A stretch of 64,000 nt of DNA from an uncultured Candidatus Rokubacteria bacterium (GTDB lineage: Bacteria; Methylomirabilota; Methylomirabilia; Rokubacteriales; DASRDR01): the NCBI GenBank assembly GCA_963826115.1, contig CAWGVS010000010.1, positions 541,444 to 605,443 of the forward strand. The letters run 5' to 3'. The position numbers and the translations under genes are program-made. Below are positions 56,116 to 64,000 of this stretch, piece after piece; position 1 is the first letter of the stretch, and the number at the start of each line of letters is the position of its first letter. The notes beneath the pieces were generated by a model. That model was not told where the DNA came from. It made no database searches and saw only the letters and a list, made by a program, of their open reading frames with translations.

Positions 56116-56193
56116 CTAACTCCAGCGCGAGTAACCCCAGCCCCCACCACCAAGCAGGACCAGCACCAGTAGGATGATCACCCAAGTTTCCAT
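56116..56193 (-). CDS. 25-aa membrane microprotein (DUF3309-like; not in ORF track)
   Basis: METWVIILLVLVLLGGGGWGYSRWS; RBS AAGGAGGT; downstream hairpin. Confidence 0.8.
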   Translation of the reverse strand: METWVIILLVLVLLGGGGWGYSRWS

Positions 56194-56277: not shown

Positions 56278-56323
56278 ACTCTAGGACCGGGTCAGGGTGG
56301 CGCCAATTGGACCTTCGTCCAAT
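56278..56323 (-). promoter_or_regulatory. TTGGAC-N4-GTCCAA box (56306-56323) plus -10 TAGAGT (56278-56283)
   Basis: Perfect 7-4-7 palindrome, 22-bp spacer. Confidence 0.8.
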
Positions 56324-56808
56324 ATCGAGGCCGGTGCCCTGGCCGGGCTCGACGGGCACCGGCGATGCGCACAGATGTCCTTGAGCGTATCCATGACCTC
56401 CGTGCCCCGCAGAGACTGTCCTCCGCCCTTGGCGTCGGCGGCGAGGATGAGGTCGTTGATCGAGACGATGCCCTGAAGCTTCCCGTCCGAGGTGACCACG
56501 GGCAAGCGCCGCACCTGCGCCTCGCGCATGACTTGCAGGGCTTCCCGGACGTCGTCGTCGGCCCGGACGGCGTAGAGCGGTCCACTGACGACCTCGCTCA
56601 CGCGGATCTCGGCGGCGGGCCGAGGCTGGGAGATTGTGGCCATGCAGACGTCGCGGTCCGTGATCATGCCGTGCACCATTCCCGACACGGGGTCCACCAC
56701 GGGAATCGCGCCGCAGTCATGTCGCCACATGAGCGTTCCCACCGCGGCGAGAGTGCTGGACGGGTTGCAGGTCTGGGCGTTGACGGTCATTACATCGTGG
56801 ATCTTCAT
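56281..56808 (-). CDS. CBS-domain pair protein
   Basis: MWRHDCGAIPVV, GMITDRDV, QVRRLPVV, GIVSINDL. Confidence 0.9.
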   Translation of the reverse strand: MKIHDVMTVNAQTCNPSSTLAAVGTLMWRHDCGAIPVVDPVSGMVHGMITDRDVCMATISQPRPAAEIRVSEVVSGPLYAVRADDDVREALQVMREAQVRRLPVVTSDGKLQGIVSINDLILAADAKGGGQSLRGTEVMDTLKDICAHRRCPSSPARAPASILDEGPIGATLTRS

Positions 56809-56819
56809 GTTGGCTGTCC

Positions 56820-57143
56820 TTGTGAGCTGAGGGGCCGCTCCATCCGAACTCGGGCTCGACGGGCATCGTGTCGGCTCGTTGTGACCGAGCGTCGGCGACT
56901 AACGACGGTCGTGTTCTGACCATCGATTCGAGTCCGGCGGCTACCACCGGCGCCTCGTCTTCTGCCAAGGCGGACGCTCTCGCGGCGTGCTCGAGTTGAT
57001 CCACGCGCAGTGCCGTACCCGGGAGAGGTCTCCCCAATGCCGAGAGAGTGCGACGAAGCCGAGGGAGGCGCACGCGCCGGACGGCGCCGAGGAACCGGAA
57101 CACGACGATCGAGACTCCGAGAATCCAGGAGCGTGGTGTCCAT
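56820..57143 (-). pseudogene. Multiply frameshifted small membrane protein gene
   Basis: RBS GGGAG and MDTTLL, then ILGVSIVVF in another frame; lies just downstream of a box promoter. Confidence 0.35.
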
Positions 57144-57167
57144 CCGGTCGCTGTTCTCCCGTCGCTC

Positions 57168-57241
57168 ACTCTAGGCGCATGTACCCCGTTCGCATATGAG
57201 ACCTAGGTCCAATAGGCGCTGGCGTGCGAGGCGCATACCGT
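57168..57241. promoter_or_regulatory. Bidirectional promoter: box 57196-57213 with -10 TAGAGT (minus, 57168-57173) and TACCGT (plus, 57236-57241)
   Basis: ATGAGAC-CTAG-GTCCAAT with 22-bp spacers on both sides. Confidence 0.78.
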
Positions 57242-57331
57242 CGATACGGGACGAGTGAATAGCGGGGTCCTCGGGACTTCCCAGGATTGACGTCGCGGCC
57301 GTGGCGACGGACCCCCTGAAGGGAGGCCGGC

Positions 57332-57483
57332 GTGTTTCTGACTCTGTGTACCGTGTTGGTGGTGGCCTGGCTACTCGGGTGGACCGTGTTTCACGTCGCG
57401 GGTGGCCTGATTCACCTGCTCCTGATCGTGGCGGCCACTCGATGATCGCCCATCTTGTGCGCGGCCGCGGCGCCGGGGCCTAA
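57332..57483 (+). pseudogene. DUF5670 / lmo0937-like small membrane protein, one-base deletion near 57437
   Basis: VLVVAWLLGWTVFHVAGGLIHLLLIVA, then SMIAHLVRGRG in shifted frame; RBS GGGAGG. Confidence 0.78.
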
Positions 57484-57618
57484 GGCGAACACCGCGTCCA
57501 CCGTCACGGAATCGCTCACACCGCCGGCGGGCGATGACCGCCCGCTGGCTGAGTGACACAACGAATCGTCGAGGTCCGGCATGGCCGCAGGGGCCGTACG
57601 GGGCGATGAGGAGGACCG

Positions 57619-58419
57619 ATGGGATCGATGTTGCGGAGCGTGAGAGATCTTGGCGGCTTCACGATCGGCGCGACCGATGGTGACGTCGGGCAGGTGGCGA
57701 CGTGCTATTTCGACGACACGAGCTTCACGGTTCGGCATCTGGTGGTTGACACCGGAGGCTGGCTGTCTGGACGAAAGGTCCTCATCTCGCCGCGGGCCCT
57801 CCGGGACATCGACTGGGACGCCAAGCGGATCAACGCGGCCTTGACCAAGGTCCAGGTGATGCACAGCCCGGACATCGACACGGACCGGCCGGTCTCGCGT
57901 CAGCAGGAGATCGAGTACGACCGCTACTACGGGTACCCCAGTTACTGGACAGGACCGTACCTCTGGGGCGGCGATCCCGCTCCCGTCCTTTCGGACCGCA
58001 CGCCCGCCTCCTCCTTCGAGCAGGAGCAGCACTGGGAGTGGGGGTCTCAGGAGGCCGGAGATCCGCACCTCCGAAGCGTGGCCGTCGTGACCGGTTACCA
58101 CATCTCGGCCACAGATGGCGATATCGGGCACGTCGAGGACTTCCTGGTGGACGAGGCGACGTGGGCGATTCGCTACATGGTCGTTGACACGCGCAATTGG
58201 TGGTCTGGGAAGAAGGTGCTGGTGTCGCCGCGGTGGATCGCCGGCGTGGACTGGAACGCCTCCGCGGTGGAGGTCGAGATGAGTCGCGAGCAGATCAAGA
58301 ACAGCCCGGAATACGATCCATCGGCGCCCCTGCAGCGCGACTACGAGTCGCGTTTGCACGAGCACTATGGTCGCCCCGGGTACTGGTCCGGTTCGGATAC
58401 GGAGCGTGCCCGGCGGTAG
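57619..58419 (+). CDS. Tandem PRC-barrel domain protein
   Basis: Two ATDGD.G.V...FDD/VDE...VVDT..W..G.KVL.SP repeats. Confidence 0.9.
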   Translation: MGSMLRSVRDLGGFTIGATDGDVGQVATCYFDDTSFTVRHLVVDTGGWLSGRKVLISPRALRDIDWDAKRINAALTKVQVMHSPDIDTDRPVSRQQEIEYDRYYGYPSYWTGPYLWGGDPAPVLSDRTPASSFEQEQHWEWGSQEAGDPHLRSVAVVTGYHISATDGDIGHVEDFLVDEATWAIRYMVVDTRNWWSGKKVLVSPRWIAGVDWNASAVEVEMSREQIKNSPEYDPSAPLQRDYESRLHEHYGRPGYWSGSDTERARR

Positions 58420-58516
58420 GGGGCACACGGTCGTCAGGTGGGCCGATCCAACGTCACGGCCGCGAAGCGGCGACCGCGACAACGGAAACGAAGGCGATGT
58501 GACAAGGAGAGCGGAC

Positions 58517-58807
58517 ATGCGAACCAGTGAGGCTTTCATTTTAGGAACGATGGCGGGCGCCGCCATCGCGTGGTTCTGGGGAAGAGGGATTGCGGACTAC
58601 GTGGGGGAGCAGACGCGCGGCGTGCGCGTCGGGGCCGCCGACGGCATGCGGGCGGCGGACGAGACAGCGGGACGGGTTCTGGACCTCGGGGGGGACTCCC
58701 TGCGGCGCGCGGAGGAGTTCCTGCAAGACACCAAGGAGCATGTCAGTGACGCCCTCCGTGCGGGACAGGAGGCGATTCGTCCAGCGCCGAGAACCAGAGA
58801 CGCGTGA
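58517..58807 (+). CDS. YtxH-like membrane-anchored helical protein
   Basis: RBS AAGGAG; FILGTMAGAAIAWFW followed by amphipathic helix. Confidence 0.7.
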   Translation: MRTSEAFILGTMAGAAIAWFWGRGIADYVGEQTRGVRVGAADGMRAADETAGRVLDLGGDSLRRAEEFLQDTKEHVSDALRAGQEAIRPAPRTRDA

Positions 58808-58873
58808 CGAGGGCCGGGACCTGGTCCCGGTCGGATGACGCCCGGGTACGGGTAGACCGGAAGGAAGCGCTCG

Positions 58874-59674
58874 ATGCTATCGAAGCTGCTCGTTCTCGCC
58901 CTGATCGTGACGGCGGCCATCGTGCCATCGGTGGCCGCGGATCCGATCGCCGTTCGGTTGGCGGAGGCCGGCGCGCGGGGGTTCCTGATCCTGCGTGATG
59001 CGGGCACGGGCAAGGTCGTGGCGAAGGGCGAGCTCATCCAGGTCATCCGAGGCGATGGGATCGAGAGTCGGCTGATATTTCGCTTTGCCGACGAGTCGCT
59101 GAGCGACGAGACGGTCGTGTTCTCGCAGCGCTCGGTGTTCCGGCTGCTGAGCTACCGGCTGATTCAGCGCGGGCCGGCGTTTCCCGAATCGCTCGAGGTG
59201 TCCATGACGCGGGATCCGCCCGTGTACTCGGCGCGTACGCGGTCCCGCGAGGGCAAGGAGGCCAGCAGCCGAGGAGCGCTGGACGTGCCGGCGGACCTCG
59301 CCAACGGAATGCTGGGACTCGTCCTCCGGAATCTGCCGACCGGTCGTTCCGAAAGCGTGCAGATCGTCGCCTTCACCCCGGAGCCGCGCTTCCTGGACGT
59401 CCTCCTGAGCCCGGCGACGGCGGTTCCCGTTCTCGCGGGAGGTGTTCAACGCTCGGCCGGCCTGTTCGTGCTGAAGCCGAAGCTCCGAGGCATTGCTCGG
59501 CTCGTCGCGCCGCTGATCGGCAAGGAGCCGCCGACGCTGCGGTACTGGATCCTCGGGGGCGAGGTGCCGGCCTTCCTCCGATTCGAGGGGTCCATGTTCC
59601 TGAACGGCCCCGTGTGGCGTGTCGACCTCACGGGCGCCGAGTGGCCTGGGCAGACCGTCACCCAAGGGCCGTGA
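58874..59674 (+). CDS. Exported hypothetical protein
   Basis: Signal peptide; biased codons; DLANG, VAFTPEPR, PAFLRFEG. Confidence 0.8.
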   Translation: MLSKLLVLALIVTAAIVPSVAADPIAVRLAEAGARGFLILRDAGTGKVVAKGELIQVIRGDGIESRLIFRFADESLSDETVVFSQRSVFRLLSYRLIQRGPAFPESLEVSMTRDPPVYSARTRSREGKEASSRGALDVPADLANGMLGLVLRNLPTGRSESVQIVAFTPEPRFLDVLLSPATAVPVLAGGVQRSAGLFVLKPKLRGIARLVAPLIGKEPPTLRYWILGGEVPAFLRFEGSMFLNGPVWRVDLTGAEWPGQTVTQGP

Positions 59675-59963
59675 GGCACGGCCGGGCACCTGGACCGGCG
59701 GGTGCCCACACCGGTCCCGCTGCCGTGGCCGGGTCGACGTCCGAAGTTCGGACGCATCTCAGCGACGCCCGGAGGTTTCTGTGGCGAGCCAATGAAGAGG
59801 GCGGGGTCGGACTGTCTGCTCTCGGCGCGACCGGGGGTCGTCTCTCACGCGAGCGGGGCGGTGTCCCGGTGAGCCCCCGCTGCGGGTCGACGGTGCGATG
59901 TCCCAGCGAGTTATTGATTCGAGCTCTACCAGCGCGGATGACACGGATGAAAGGGAGTGCGTG

Positions 59964-60551
59964 ATGAGCGCGAGGAACGCGACCAAGACGCCAACCCGAC
60001 CATTCCTGAGCGATATCAAGGAGATCCGACGCCGAGCGCGGGCGCACATGGACCAGGGGGCCGTGACCGACGGGTATCGGGCAGACCGCGAGACGGTCGT
60101 GCGCCTCCTCAACGAAGCGCTGGCGACCGAGATCGTCTGCGTGCTGCGGTACCGACGCCACCACTACATGGCGAACGGCATCCATGCAACCGCGGTCGCC
60201 GCGGAGTTCATGAAGCACTCCCAGGAGGAACAGGGCCACGCCGACCAGATCGCCGAGCGCATCGTGCAGCTCGGCGGCGCGCCCGACTTCGACCCGGCCG
60301 GTCTCAGCACGCGCAGCCACTCGGAATACGTCGCGGCGGACGAGCTTGCGGAGATGATCCGCGAGAATCTCGTCGCGGAGCGCGTCGCCATCGAGTCCTA
60401 CGGTGAGATCATCCGATACCTCGGGGAAGGCGACCCGACGAGCCGTCGCTTGATGGAGGAGATCCTGGCCGTCGAGGAGGAGCACGCCGACGACATGAAG
60501 ACGCTCCTGGAGGCGCTGGGACCACCGAGCAAGAGTGAGAAGACCCGGTAA
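59964..60551 (+). CDS. Ferritin-like / bacterioferritin protein
   Basis: LNEALATE, EEQGHAD, LVAERVAIESY, EEEHAD ferroxidase motifs. Confidence 0.92.
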   Translation: MSARNATKTPTRPFLSDIKEIRRRARAHMDQGAVTDGYRADRETVVRLLNEALATEIVCVLRYRRHHYMANGIHATAVAAEFMKHSQEEQGHADQIAERIVQLGGAPDFDPAGLSTRSHSEYVAADELAEMIRENLVAERVAIESYGEIIRYLGEGDPTSRRLMEEILAVEEEHADDMKTLLEALGPPSKSEKTR

Positions 60552-60598
60552 CGGCGCGCGCAGCCCGCAGGGCGAACGAGCGCCGTCCACGACTGGGG

Positions 60599-60644
60599 AT
60601 TGGACGAAGGTCCAATAGCTGCCGGTCCATCCGGTTGCTACCGT
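60599..60644 (+). promoter_or_regulatory. TTGGAC-N4-GTCCAA box (60599-60616) plus -10 TACCGT (60639-60644)
   Basis: ATTGGACGAAGGTCCAAT, the exact reverse complement of 56306-56323; 22-bp spacer. Confidence 0.8.
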
Positions 60645-60786
60645 GAGCTTCAGAGGTCGGGGGTCACCGAGGCATCCCGGCGAGATGGTCTCGGTCGCTC
60701 GATACCGAGATACGAGGCGGCGCGGCGGCGAGGGTGCCGGCGCGCACACCGATATCACCACACGGTCCACACACAGGGAGAAAAGC

Positions 60787-61833
60787 ATGAATCGAACATC
60801 GTGGCTCAAGTCTGGCGTGCTCGCGGTGGCGCTGGGCGCGGCGCTGGCCGCGCCGGTCGGGGCGGCCGCACCGGACGCCTGGATCACCACAAAAGCGAAG
60901 CTGGCCCTCCTGACCACGGAGGGCGTCAGCGGGACGGCGATCCACGTGGACACCGTTCTCGGCCGAGTCACCCTGCACGGCAAGGTGCCCTCCGCCGCGG
61001 AGAAGGCGCAGGCCGAGAGCGTCACGCAGAAGATCGACGGCGTGCAGAGCGTGCGCAACCTGCTCCAGGTGGTGGCCCCGCAGCACGTGCAGGCGATGCA
61101 GGTGACCGACGACGCCCTCAAGGCGCGGATCGAGACGGCGCTGCGGGCCGATCCGTCCCTCCGGGACAGCGGGATCTCCGTCCAATCGGTGAACAAGGGG
61201 GTCGTGCTGCTGACGGGCACGGCGAAGAGCCTGAGCGCTCACTTGCGCGCGGTCGAGATGGTGGCCGCGACGCCGGGCGTGCAGCGGGTGGCCAGTGAGG
61301 TCCAGAGCCCGGATACGCTGGCGGATGCCGAGATCTGGCGTGCCGCCACCCCGAAGCCCGCCACGAGCAAGGAGTACGGAGTCGGGGACGCGGCCAGCGA
61401 CACGTGGATCACCTCGGCGACCAAGATGCGCTTGCTGGCGGACTCGAGAACGCCGGCGCTCGACATCAACGTGGACACCCGGGCGGGGATCGTGACGCTC
61501 TTCGGCATCGTGCCGACGCAGGACGCGAAGGCCGCGGCTGCGGAGGACGCCCGCAAGGTGAGCGGCGTCACGCGCGTCGTGAACGAGCTGCAGGTCGTGG
61601 CGACCTCGAAGCAGGCGGCAGTGAAGGTGCGCGACGAAGAAATGCAGGGCGCCGTGAAGAAGGCCTTTGACACCCAGGACTTCAAGGACGTCACGGTGAA
61701 GGTGAAGAACGGCGTCGTGCGGCTGACCGGTACCGTTCCCACGGGAACGCGGCGGCTGGAAGCGGCGGTGCTCGCGCGCTCGATCCAGGGCGTGCGCGCC
61801 GTCGAGGACGATCTGCGCGTCGTGGCAGCCTAG
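60787..61833 (+). CDS. Secreted protein with four BON domains (OsmY-like)
   Basis: Signal peptide; four D..I...K...V...G.V.L.G...GV..V...L units. Confidence 0.92.
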   Translation: MNRTSWLKSGVLAVALGAALAAPVGAAAPDAWITTKAKLALLTTEGVSGTAIHVDTVLGRVTLHGKVPSAAEKAQAESVTQKIDGVQSVRNLLQVVAPQHVQAMQVTDDALKARIETALRADPSLRDSGISVQSVNKGVVLLTGTAKSLSAHLRAVEMVAATPGVQRVASEVQSPDTLADAEIWRAATPKPATSKEYGVGDAASDTWITSATKMRLLADSRTPALDINVDTRAGIVTLFGIVPTQDAKAAAAEDARKVSGVTRVVNELQVVATSKQAAVKVRDEEMQGAVKKAFDTQDFKDVTVKVKNGVVRLTGTVPTGTRRLEAAVLARSIQGVRAVEDDLRVVAA

Positions 61834-61921
61834 GCGAGACCCTTCGACACGACGCTGCCACACCACACGCCCCGCGACGATCGCAGGCCGCGGTCGTCGC
61901 GGGGCGACGAGGAGGACGGCA

Positions 61922-62113
61922 ATGGGCGGAAAGCTCGACCAAGCAAGAGGTCGCATCAAGGAGGCGGCGGGGGTGTTGACCGGTGACGACCGTCTCAAGA
62001 GAGCCGGGAAGGCGGATCAGGTGGCGGGGAAGGTGAAGGGAACGGTGGAGCGGGTGGTGGATACCGTCAAGGACGCTCTGACCGGCAACAGGCCCAACCG
62101 CCCGGCCCGGTGA
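61922..62113 (+). CDS. CsbD family general stress protein
   Basis: GRIKEAAGVLTGDDRLKRAGKADQVAGKVK; RBS GAGGAGG. Confidence 0.9.
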   Translation: MGGKLDQARGRIKEAAGVLTGDDRLKRAGKADQVAGKVKGTVERVVDTVKDALTGNRPNRPAR

Positions 62114-62564
62114 TCGGCTGCGCCGGCCCGTGACGGGGAGACGACGGGGGCGGGGCCGAATCGTATGACGCTCGTGGGGTGCTCGCCCTCCCGGGCTCGG
62201 TGGGATGGACGACGCGGCAAGCGAGACTCCGCCGCTCGCCGAAGTCGGTCACCCCAGACCTTGCCAGCACGCTAGGCGGCTCGGTGGCTGGGCGACGGCT
62301 CCCGGCCGTGGCAAGGGCCGCCTCCGCCGCCTTTTCGTAATCCTGGCGGTAAACGTCCCCGGCAGAGTCGGCCTTCGGGCTGGCCGAGCTCGGAGGCGAG
62401 CCCGCCCTCGCCCGCGTCTCGCGGCCCCTCCCGATGACGCCCGGCCCATCGGTGGCATCGAGGTGATCGAGAGGCACGCGGCCGGGTCGTCGCACGCCCC
62501 CCTCGAGCACCGGGGGTCTCCATGGCCACCCTGCCGATCCCGCCACTGGCCTCGGCGGCTTCGA

Positions 62565-62610
62565 GTTGGACCAAAGTCCAATATTCCAGCCGGACCGTGT
62601 CGACTAGAGT
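62565..62610 (+). promoter_or_regulatory. TTGGAC-N4-GTCCAA box (62565-62582) plus -10 TAGAGT (62605-62610)
   Basis: GTTGGACCAAAGTCCAAT; 22-bp spacer. Confidence 0.8.
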
Positions 62611-62725: not shown

Positions 62726-63040
62726 ATGAACGGAATGTCGAAGCGCCTGATGCTCCTCTTTCTTGCGCTGTCCTTCACCTTCGTTACAGGCTGTGCGTCC
62801 ACTACCAAACAGGAAGGGACCGGGGAGTACGTCGACGACTCGGTGGTCACGACCAAAGTGAAGAGCGCCATCCTGAACGACCCCGAGCTGAAGGTGCTAC
62901 AGATCAACGTCGAGACGTTCAAGGGCGTGGTGCAGCTGTCTGGATTCGTCGACTCCAAGGCGATGATGGCCCGCGCGGTCGAGGTGACTCGCGGCGTGGC
63001 CGGTGTGAAGGACGTGAAGGACGACATGCGCGTGCGGTGA
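62726..63040 (+). CDS. Single BON-domain lipoprotein
   Basis: Lipobox VTGC; TGEYVDDSVVTTKVK, INVETFKGVVQLSGFV. Confidence 0.92.
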   Translation: MNGMSKRLMLLFLALSFTFVTGCASTTKQEGTGEYVDDSVVTTKVKSAILNDPELKVLQINVETFKGVVQLSGFVDSKAMMARAVEVTRGVAGVKDVKDDMRVR

Positions 63041-63111: not shown

Positions 63112-63624
63112 ATGGACGATATCGGGAGTCAGCTCGTTCAGGACCTGCAGAGGGCCATGTTGCGCCTTCGCCACCTGGGTGGTGCGGCGCCGGCCGAGGA
63201 GCTGCCCGGGACGGCCCGGGACAGCCTCTCGTTTGCGGATGAGGTCGACGGGATCCAGGTCAACGAGAGCCGGGAGATCGGCTTGGCCACGCGTGAGCTG
63301 CTGATGGAGCGCGTGAACCGGCTGTCGGCGGCACTCGACCGGATGAACGAGGGTGCGTACGGCGCCTGCGTCGAGTGTGACGAGGCGATCTCCGCGGCCC
63401 GGCTGCGTGCCATGCCCGAGGCTCAGACCTGTATCCGCTGCCAGGACCGCATCGAGCGTGTCGGTCGTCGGATGGAGCGCGGTCGGCAGAGCGTGTTCGC
63501 CGCCAGCGAGGATCTCGGCATGTCCACGGCGAGCCAGACGTGGGTTCGCTCGCCACGCGTCCCGAGCGACGACGACCGCGGTCTGCGGGTCCCGGACGCG
63601 CTGAGAGCCACGGCTAGCCGCTAG
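63112..63624 (+). CDS. TraR/DksA C4 zinc-finger protein
   Basis: DEVD coiled-coil tip; YGACVEC...RLRAMPEAQTCIRCQ. Confidence 0.88.
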   Translation: MDDIGSQLVQDLQRAMLRLRHLGGAAPAEELPGTARDSLSFADEVDGIQVNESREIGLATRELLMERVNRLSAALDRMNEGAYGACVECDEAISAARLRAMPEAQTCIRCQDRIERVGRRMERGRQSVFAASEDLGMSTASQTWVRSPRVPSDDDRGLRVPDALRATASR

Positions 63625-64000
63625 CGCGTCCGCCCGGAAGTCCGGGCGCTGGCGCCTGTGGTCGAACAGGCGTCGTCGTTGAGGCGTCATGCTGCGCCAT
63701 CAACGCGTCACGACGTTGTCCGTCTGCGCGCCCTTCTGATCACGGGGACCCGGCCTGTCCTCGTGGCTCGGGGCGTGTTGGTGAGCGCGTTCCGCGAGTT
63801 CGCAATCCGCGAGGGGTTGGATCGGTGCCGGCGGCGAGACCAGGGGATGCGGCGGGAAGCGCCCCGGAGGAACGCCGGAATCCCCTCGGGAAGAGACCCA
63901 ACGGACGACGCTACTCTAGGTATCCAAGTGTAGCTGTCAGGCGTGCTCGCCGACGGGCACGTCCATGCTCAGCATGTTCTGAAGTGGTCCGATGCAAGGC

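Follow-up and report, generated by a model that had tools for sequence, protein, structure and literature searches.

A palindromic box 22 bp from putative -10 hexamers in a Rokubacteria genome, and the FixJ/StyR-type regulators that probably read it

At the end of a contig from an uncultured Candidatus Rokubacteria bacterium (assembly GCA_963826115.1, contig CAWGVS010000010.1, here C10), four copies of an 18-bp palindrome, the box, lie ahead of genes of stress type. They stand in a window of 64,000 nucleotides (positions 541,444 to 605,443 of the contig; 'the window' means this whole stretch), and an earlier reading of its letters, the original prediction, had seen in them an unfamiliar activator regulon. 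We show here that the box keeps a fixed spacing to a -10-like hexamer, is conserved, is linked to genes for FixJ/StyR-type regulators and covaries with their recognition helix. The boxes are very probably operators for such a regulator, with the helix EKT[VI]K.HR, a dimer of which would activate these promoters.

This provides an operator, a promoter geometry and a candidate regulator for a widespread and apparently uncharacterized subfamily of FixJ type, a helix-residue rule that separates its members from look-alike paralogues, and a handle on the control of stress-type genes in an uncultured soil lineage. The main additions to the original prediction are the link to the helices of EL222 and DosR, the residue rule, and the presence of the module in cultured Paraburkholderia and Caballeronia strains, which makes it testable at once.

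The box and its spacing, here and in other genomes

The four window boxes share the consensus ATTGGAC-CWWG-GTCCAAT, and on five of their eight flanks, all five gene-facing, TAGAGT or TACCGT lies at 22 bp. Four boxes and five hexamers had been predicted, and every coordinate was as given (Table 1). Hexamers of the form TAnnnT occupy 36 of 17988 positions between 55 and 64 kb; the binomial probability of those at 22 bp is about 2e-12, or about 2e-8 once a spacer chosen from the data is allowed for. A loose box count tolerating two mismatches is weak or marginal (4 observed, 1.19 expected; 2 of 100 shuffles reach 4), so that the case for the boxes rests on the confinement of exact sites and on conservation in a same-genus genome, G002. 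Indeed, exact TTGGAC-N4-GTCCAA occurs three times in the 6.24-Mb genome (GC content 72%), every time inside the window, and with the other 12 spacers between 0 and 12 no exact site exists in that genome. In G002, boxes 1 and 2 are almost unchanged and both TAGAGT hexamers are kept, while the flanks have diverged.

A genome-wide scan, which the original prediction had called for, was also made with a matrix whose training set was 25 sites of relatives. Seven sites exceeded 20 bits, the four window boxes among them, and five column-shuffled controls gave none. C7 is present in 50 of the 50 half-sites of the matrix and T3 in 48, and W9 is constrained; box 2 lacks G4 in one half-site. No tandem second box accompanies the four, the next-best site in the window scoring just 8 bits, and Rfam at gathering threshold has no match in the window. 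The four palindromes are confirmed as real. If the hexamer occupies -12 to -7, the 22-bp geometry places the box centre at about -43.5, and the rigid spacing supports the predicted activator site overlapping the -35 position.

Further sites were sought in a joint scan for box plus -10 hexamer, which returned 11 matches, compared with 6 to 9 above an equal threshold for control spacers, as the box contributes most of the score; signal separates from controls only among the highest scores (37 to 46 versus at most 34). Given these control matches, the extra sites on contigs C2, C4, C5 and C3 and at C10:260572 are candidates only. Four soil RNA runs, all from one study, contain 0.18 to 0.25 of the words, some of their contigs crossing boxes 1 and 3; being contigs only, they are silent on starts, strand and levels, and were not used as evidence either way. 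Close to the end of the contig, the minus strand has an extra TAGAGT (window 63912-63919), with no box at 22 bp and no scoring site.

The box with its 22-bp promoter geometry recurs across many phyla. Of 200 genomes of the phylum, 51 contain the pattern TTGGACNWWNGTCCAAT, against none for its reversed control. An exact GTDB scan with ATTGGACCWWGGTCCAAT matched at least 120 stretches; the 80 listed, hereafter the 80 GTDB loci, span Paraburkholderia, Caballeronia, Binatia, Rokubacteria, Acidobacteriota, deltaproteobacterial groups, Verrucomicrobiota and Bacillota. The -10 hexamer was no part of the search pattern; in 164 flanks among the matches listed, TAnnnT is found 37 times at 22 bp, 14 times at 23 bp and 0 to 5 times at any other spacer. 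As for plasmids, a search returned only relatives below 60% identity.

Regulators beside the box

Unguided clustering of the open reading frames (ORFs) of the 80 GTDB loci gave a regulator/receiver family in 30 loci and a kinase family in 25; the next family, with shadow frames of these two set aside, was found in 8. In 21 of these loci, the gene of a full-length FixJ/StyR-type regulator is no more than 6 kb from the box, and the helix EK[TN][VI]K.HR is carried by 18 of the 22 full-length regulators they contain. At 14 of the 21, a box of at least 16 bits is located between -40 and +250 nt of the regulator stop codon. The linked regulators consist of a receiver and a GerE domain and adjoin a HisKA kinase.

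To avoid circularity, 40 loci were also fetched by regulator (20 close, 20 distant), and one of them was left out because of an in-frame stop. Within 3 kb, 30 of 33 EK-helix regulators had a box scoring 14 bits or more, versus 1 of 6 with other helices, the background being 5 of 940 genome tiles. Five Burkholderiaceae genomes have 3 to 9 such regulators each; here 4 of 5 EK-helix loci had a box of at least 23 bits, and the other 15 loci all scored 5 bits or less (20 of 32 matches were fetched, and two of the four boxed loci had originally been found through the box). The strict pattern occurs in 39 of 54 genomes with a close regulator, in 4 of 34 with only distant paralogues and in 8 of 112 with none, for a close/distant E-value cut-off chosen afterwards and with kin genomes that are not independent. 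Distant EK-helix paralogues also have boxes, weaker ones, and the close/distant split therefore reflects strictness of the pattern rather than a rule of presence. The regulator tree was a quick version with many open forks, from which no conclusion on origin or transfer was drawn.

The recognition helix is EKT[VI]K.HR here, EKTVKMHR in EL222, EVTVKVHR in StyR and RTV/IEV in FixJ; aligned with DosR, K179 and K182 are kept and N183 is replaced by V. That the helix is shared with EL222 and DosR would explain the sequence of the box. Two regulator genes (L172 and L173, at G003:C6 and G014:C10) have an in-frame TGA within the match and are possibly broken copies. The two-component pair has further neighbours in genomes G019 and G002 (L014:2869-6344, L015:2518-5992): an unknown protein of 110 aa, a KaiC-like ATPase and a hybrid kinase with GAF.

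The genome under study encodes four GerE-domain proteins, of which one alone, at C3:74482-75135, has the EK helix; the regulator had been predicted to lie outside the window, as this protein does. Its gene is preceded by that of a 1064-aa kinase (periplasmic substrate-binding-like domain, one membrane span, GAF, two PAS, HisKA and HATPase domains) and followed by a lone receiver gene. A weak box of 10.2 bits sits between regulator and receiver, at the regulator stop codon, and is conserved in six same-genus loci, where it is stronger (15.6-25.1 bits).

We propose the following mechanism. A membrane sensor kinase with a periplasmic substrate-binding-like domain, GAF, in some cases PAS, and HisKA would perceive the signal and phosphorylate the regulator; the phosphorylated dimer (receiver plus LuxR-type helix-turn-helix (HTH) domain) would bind the box over the -35 position, with its centre near -43.5, and recruit RNA polymerase with a sigma70-family factor to promoters whose sole core element is the -10. 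The lone receiver gene behind the regulator would be a conserved core target and possibly a feedback brake, and the regulon of this lineage would have gained envelope and stress-type genes. The only fitting protein of the assembly is that of C3; the gap beyond the end of contig C10 may hide a paralogue linked to the island.

Several observations weigh against this proposal. No regulator lies within 6 kb in 59 of the 80 GTDB loci listed; three of the 33 EK regulators have no box (two of them where a contig breaks off), and a box does accompany one non-EK regulator. The loci fetched by regulator, 40 in all, were hand-picked, and the five Burkholderiaceae genomes were picked for holding the box. 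In this genome, the C3 regulator's own box reaches just 10.2 bits, with CAGAGT at 23 bp, and the protein shares just 52% identity with the regulator linked to the island in G002. Moreover, the rarity of the strict pattern in genomes with only distant paralogues (4 of 34) means that the C3 regulator may not be the cognate one.

In a variant compatible with the proposed mechanism, a FixJ-type regulator binds but the cognate island regulator has been lost here, the boxes being decaying relics or cross-read by the C3 paralogue. For the regulator of the G002 island, the assembly offers no close orthologue, the island shows decay (a DUF5670 frameshift, a CBS deletion), and a superoxide dismutase gene on C12 is without the box that its G019 homologue has. 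Yet none of the four boxes or five hexamers is damaged, box scores are high, and box and 22-bp promoters are retained in genomes of the genus that yielded only the C3 type. The G002 island continues beyond DksA to kinase and regulator, and here the contig ends on that very side, so that a second regulator, the cognate one, may have been missed by the assembly or lost from the genome. We consider this variant quite unlikely. Rather unlikely too, if less so, is joint action of the activator and a group 2 sigma factor, RpoS-like or otherwise, which would also be compatible with the proposed regulator. The original prediction had set an activator in place of an alternative sigma factor; the activator site is supported, the opposition is not. 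The genome encodes five sigma factors with region 1.2 (on C12, C5 and C6; L239-L243), namely RpoD and four others of group 1/2 type. These four fall below every equivalog cut-off shown, one of them being RpoS-like, and one sigma factor gene lies near a CRP-family gene on C6. A C at -13 is an RpoS mark, and is present in 29 of 39 same-phylum promoters but in just 18 of 44 of the cross-phylum set; against a specialized sigma factor stand also the identical geometry in many phyla and the behaviour of EL222, a sigma70-dependent activator in Escherichia coli (PMC5001607).

Activation by a CRP/FNR-family protein in class II geometry, the comparison offered by the original prediction, is very improbable. 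CRP and FNR half-sites are TGTGA and TTGAT with an N6 spacer, and class II sites are centred at -41.5. The box can be written as TTGGA-N6-TCCAA, one base per half-site off the FNR motif, and the listing of CRP/FNR and response-regulator genes that had been suggested yielded, besides the four GerE-domain proteins, a CRP-family gene at C6:793712. However, the half-site is TTGGAC with strongly constrained inner positions (C7, W9), giving a 12-bp core of EL222 type, so that the box matches neither CRP nor FNR half-sites, as predicted; its centre, with the hexamer at -12 to -7, would fall at about -43.5 rather than -41.5; no CRP-like family is prominent among 35 ORF clusters of at least four loci (judged by the first 50 residues of their representatives); and nothing exceeds 3 bits within 10 kb around the C6 gene. 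The apt comparison is with the family of NarL/FixJ/LuxR HTH regulators, such as StyR/TodT, DosR and EL222. Scarcely credible, finally, is a TetR-type repressor such as Thermus FadR: its best-match probe TTGGACTTAGTCCAA has equal half-sites (PMC5597230), but the spacer is 3 nt (15-bp site) against a fixed 4 here, no exact N3 site exists in the genome, and FadR sites lie across the core promoters of fatty-acid genes (PMC5597230), whereas a rigid 22 bp upstream of the -10 hexamer fits an activator and the linked genes are of FixJ type.

Target genes and the surrounding island

The features of the window are collected in Table 1 together with the further candidate boxes of the genome. Pfam bears out most gene names of the original prediction (CBS, PRC, BON, CsbD, zf-DksA, DUF5670 and, as DUF3309, the 25-aa peptide), YtxH being the exception. 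Its gene list behind promoter 57236 had left out a ferritin-like gene and a 266-aa same-strand ORF, and the DUF5670 gene in it is truncated. The ferritin-like gene may be co-transcribed from promoter 57236. Box 1 lies inside the last CBS codons because about 140 nt, including the stop codon, are missing relative to G002.

Table 1. Boxes, putative -10 hexamers and genes of the window, with further candidate boxes elsewhere in the genome
Feature	Position	Strand	Remarks
Box 1	56306..56323		ATTGGACCTTCGTCCAAT; matrix score 32.8 bits; overlaps last codons of CBS ORF
Box 2	57196..57213		ATGAGACCTAGGTCCAAT; 26.1 bits; between two divergent putative promoters
Box 3	60599..60616		ATTGGACGAAGGTCCAAT; 32.8 bits
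Box 4	62565..62582		GTTGGACCAAAGTCCAAT; 30.1 bits
Putative -10 TAGAGT	56278..56283	-	22 bp from box 1; start site predicted
Putative -10 TAGAGT	57168..57173	-	22 bp from box 2; faces CBS gene, 360 nt ahead of CBS start
Putative -10 TACCGT	57236..57241	+	22 bp from box 2; faces DUF5670/PRC; TACCCT at equal spacing in G002
Putative -10 TACCGT	60639..60644	+	22 bp from box 3; TGC directly before hexamer
Putative -10 TAGAGT	62605..62610	+	22 bp from box 4
DUF3309-like 25-aa membrane peptide	56116..56193	-	PF11752, E 7.6e-5, above cut-off; strong ribosome-binding site; conserved in G002
CBS-pair protein	56281..56808	-	Pfam; C-terminus lengthened by deletion relative to G002
DUF5670 small membrane protein	57332..57445	+	Pfam; stops at codon 37, tail runs on in another frame; probable frameshift
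Double PRC-barrel protein	57619..58419	+	Pfam
96-aa protein, labelled YtxH-like in the original prediction	58517..58807	+	No Pfam support; homologous DNA in relatives
266-aa protein, hydrophobic N-terminus	58874..59674	+	No Pfam or NCBIfam match
Ferritin/Dps-like protein	59964..60551	+	Domain match; no box of its own
Four-BON-domain OsmY-like protein	60787..61833	+	Pfam; OsmY model score below its cut-off
CsbD-like protein	61922..62113	+	Pfam
Single-BON lipoprotein-like protein	62726..63040	+	Domain search
DksA/TraR C4 zinc-finger protein	63112..63624	+	Pfam zf-DksA; contig end about 370 nt farther on
Further candidate boxes	C2:66664, C4:241048, C5:2053741, C10:260572		All intergenic; C2 site with TATGGT at 22 bp

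Targets in other genomes were taken as the first ORF, a heuristic pick that left 59 of 120 promoters, and 10 of 21 in Burkholderiaceae, without a Pfam match, some being surely wrong frames. No other first ORF is as common as the lone receiver, which stands behind 19 of the 120 promoters and, in Burkholderiaceae, 3 of the 21. Relatives of this genome have targets that resemble the window: PRC, BON, peptidoglycan-binding, CBS, superoxide dismutase, transglycosylase-associated, DksA and GroES proteins. Those of Burkholderiaceae include a Na+/H+ antiporter, cytochrome bd, carbonic anhydrase and patatin, among others. The recurring core is thus kinase, regulator, box and lone receiver, and the remaining targets depend on lineage. 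Because Burkholderiaceae targets differ, the 'general stress regulon' of the original prediction is a fair reading for this lineage alone, plausible from gene names, and not an established property of the module.

The end of the window is also the end of contig C10. From about 25 kb on (window 25118-64000), the GC content at third codon positions is lower in many genes (0.84-0.90, versus mostly 0.92-0.98 before), and this part also holds a transposase fragment (27.5 kb), groES/groEL, Hsp20, FtsH and a 3018-aa GH94 protein. The other stress-type window genes (groES/EL, Hsp20, FtsH) have no box, and the regulon within this genome is small and local. A second stress-type cluster, at C12:686000-692000, comprises genes for superoxide dismutase-like, lipoprotein, BON and transglycosylase-associated-like proteins. 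It has no box in this genome, though homologous DNA in relatives is boxed; the box regulon is therefore not the sole control of stress-type genes here. Window 25118-64000 is probably an acquired stress island, bigger than its boxed part.

Comparison with known systems

The regulator family is known and the mechanism textbook, but this box and subfamily are apparently undescribed. No published description of motif or regulon was found in the literature within reach, which excluded figure logos, binding-atlas supplements (DNA affinity purification sequencing, DAP-seq; systematic evolution of ligands by exponential enrichment, SELEX), RegPrecise and subscription papers. The original prediction called the regulon unfamiliar, but the motif is not wholly so, since its 12-bp core fits the EL222 consensus. 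The Burkholderia lxa motif, TGA-N6-TCA (PMC3721108), was rejected as the same element because its sequence differs.

The layout of kinase, regulator and lone receiver resembles FixL-FixJ-FixT, in which FixT is a feedback design (PMC7078487), and by analogy suggests feedback here. The receiver has 2 cysteines, however, and not the 4-Cys motif of FixT, and the regulator scores 202.7 against a FixJ equivalog cut-off of 255 and has another helix. The best full-length PDB match is StyR (1yio, E 1.4e-52). Boxes of the Pseudomonas regulators StyR, TodT and TmoT have in common a 6-N4-6 palindrome with an AC-N4-GT core, and StyR activates from a site at about -40 (PMC2442086). The StyR/TodT box is ATAAAC-N4-GTTTAT (PMC5874301), in contrast to TTGGAC-N4-GTCCAA here, so the box is not of the StyR type. 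Between StyR (EVTVKVHRH) and the helix here (EKTVKVHRG/A), K175 and V176 are kept, H179 is G/A and V172 is K. Unlike in StyS/TodS, the kinase is no hybrid of TodS type, nor are the targets those of aromatic catabolism.

For the HTH domain of an island-linked regulator, the best PDB match is EL222 of Erythrobacter litoralis (8a5r, 3p7n). Its 12-bp consensus is given as RGNCYWWRGNCY (PMC10521638), which the cores of boxes 1 to 4 match at 11, 12, 11 and 12 of 12 positions; taken by itself, the 12-mer discriminates little, the genome containing 164 matches to it. EL222 is described as activating an engineered luxI promoter, in a sigma70-dependent manner, from an 18-bp site overlapping -35 (PMC5001607). 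EL222 is a one-component LOV light sensor, whereas the regulators here have a receiver domain and a kinase and no LOV domain, and the EL222-type core is flanked here by conserved outer ATT/AAT arms.

The sensor of DosR (DevR) in Mycobacterium tuberculosis is a haem-GAF gas-sensing kinase; the kinase linked to the box has a GAF domain. The DosR box is described as centred at about -43.5, equal to the geometry here if the hexamer is at -12 to -7. It has 18 bp and requires G4, G5 and C7, in tandem sites (PMC3177182), and K179 and K182 of DosR are reported to read GGGACT and TGTCCC motifs (PMC13486717). Likewise, the box here is an 18-bp palindrome with G4, G5, C7 and G12, both lysines are kept, and the targets are of stress or dormancy type. 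It differs in having T3 for G3, V for N183 and single instead of tandem boxes, and the regulators here belong to the FixJ/StyR branch, with a HisKA kinase. It is possible, if doubtful, that a mobile cross-phylum module serves as master switch of general stress and dormancy in Rokubacteria-like soil bacteria, having converged from that branch on the box chemistry, position and target types of DosR while using the housekeeping sigma factor, and that a single residue (E-K versus E-V/I) predicts which regulators read the box.

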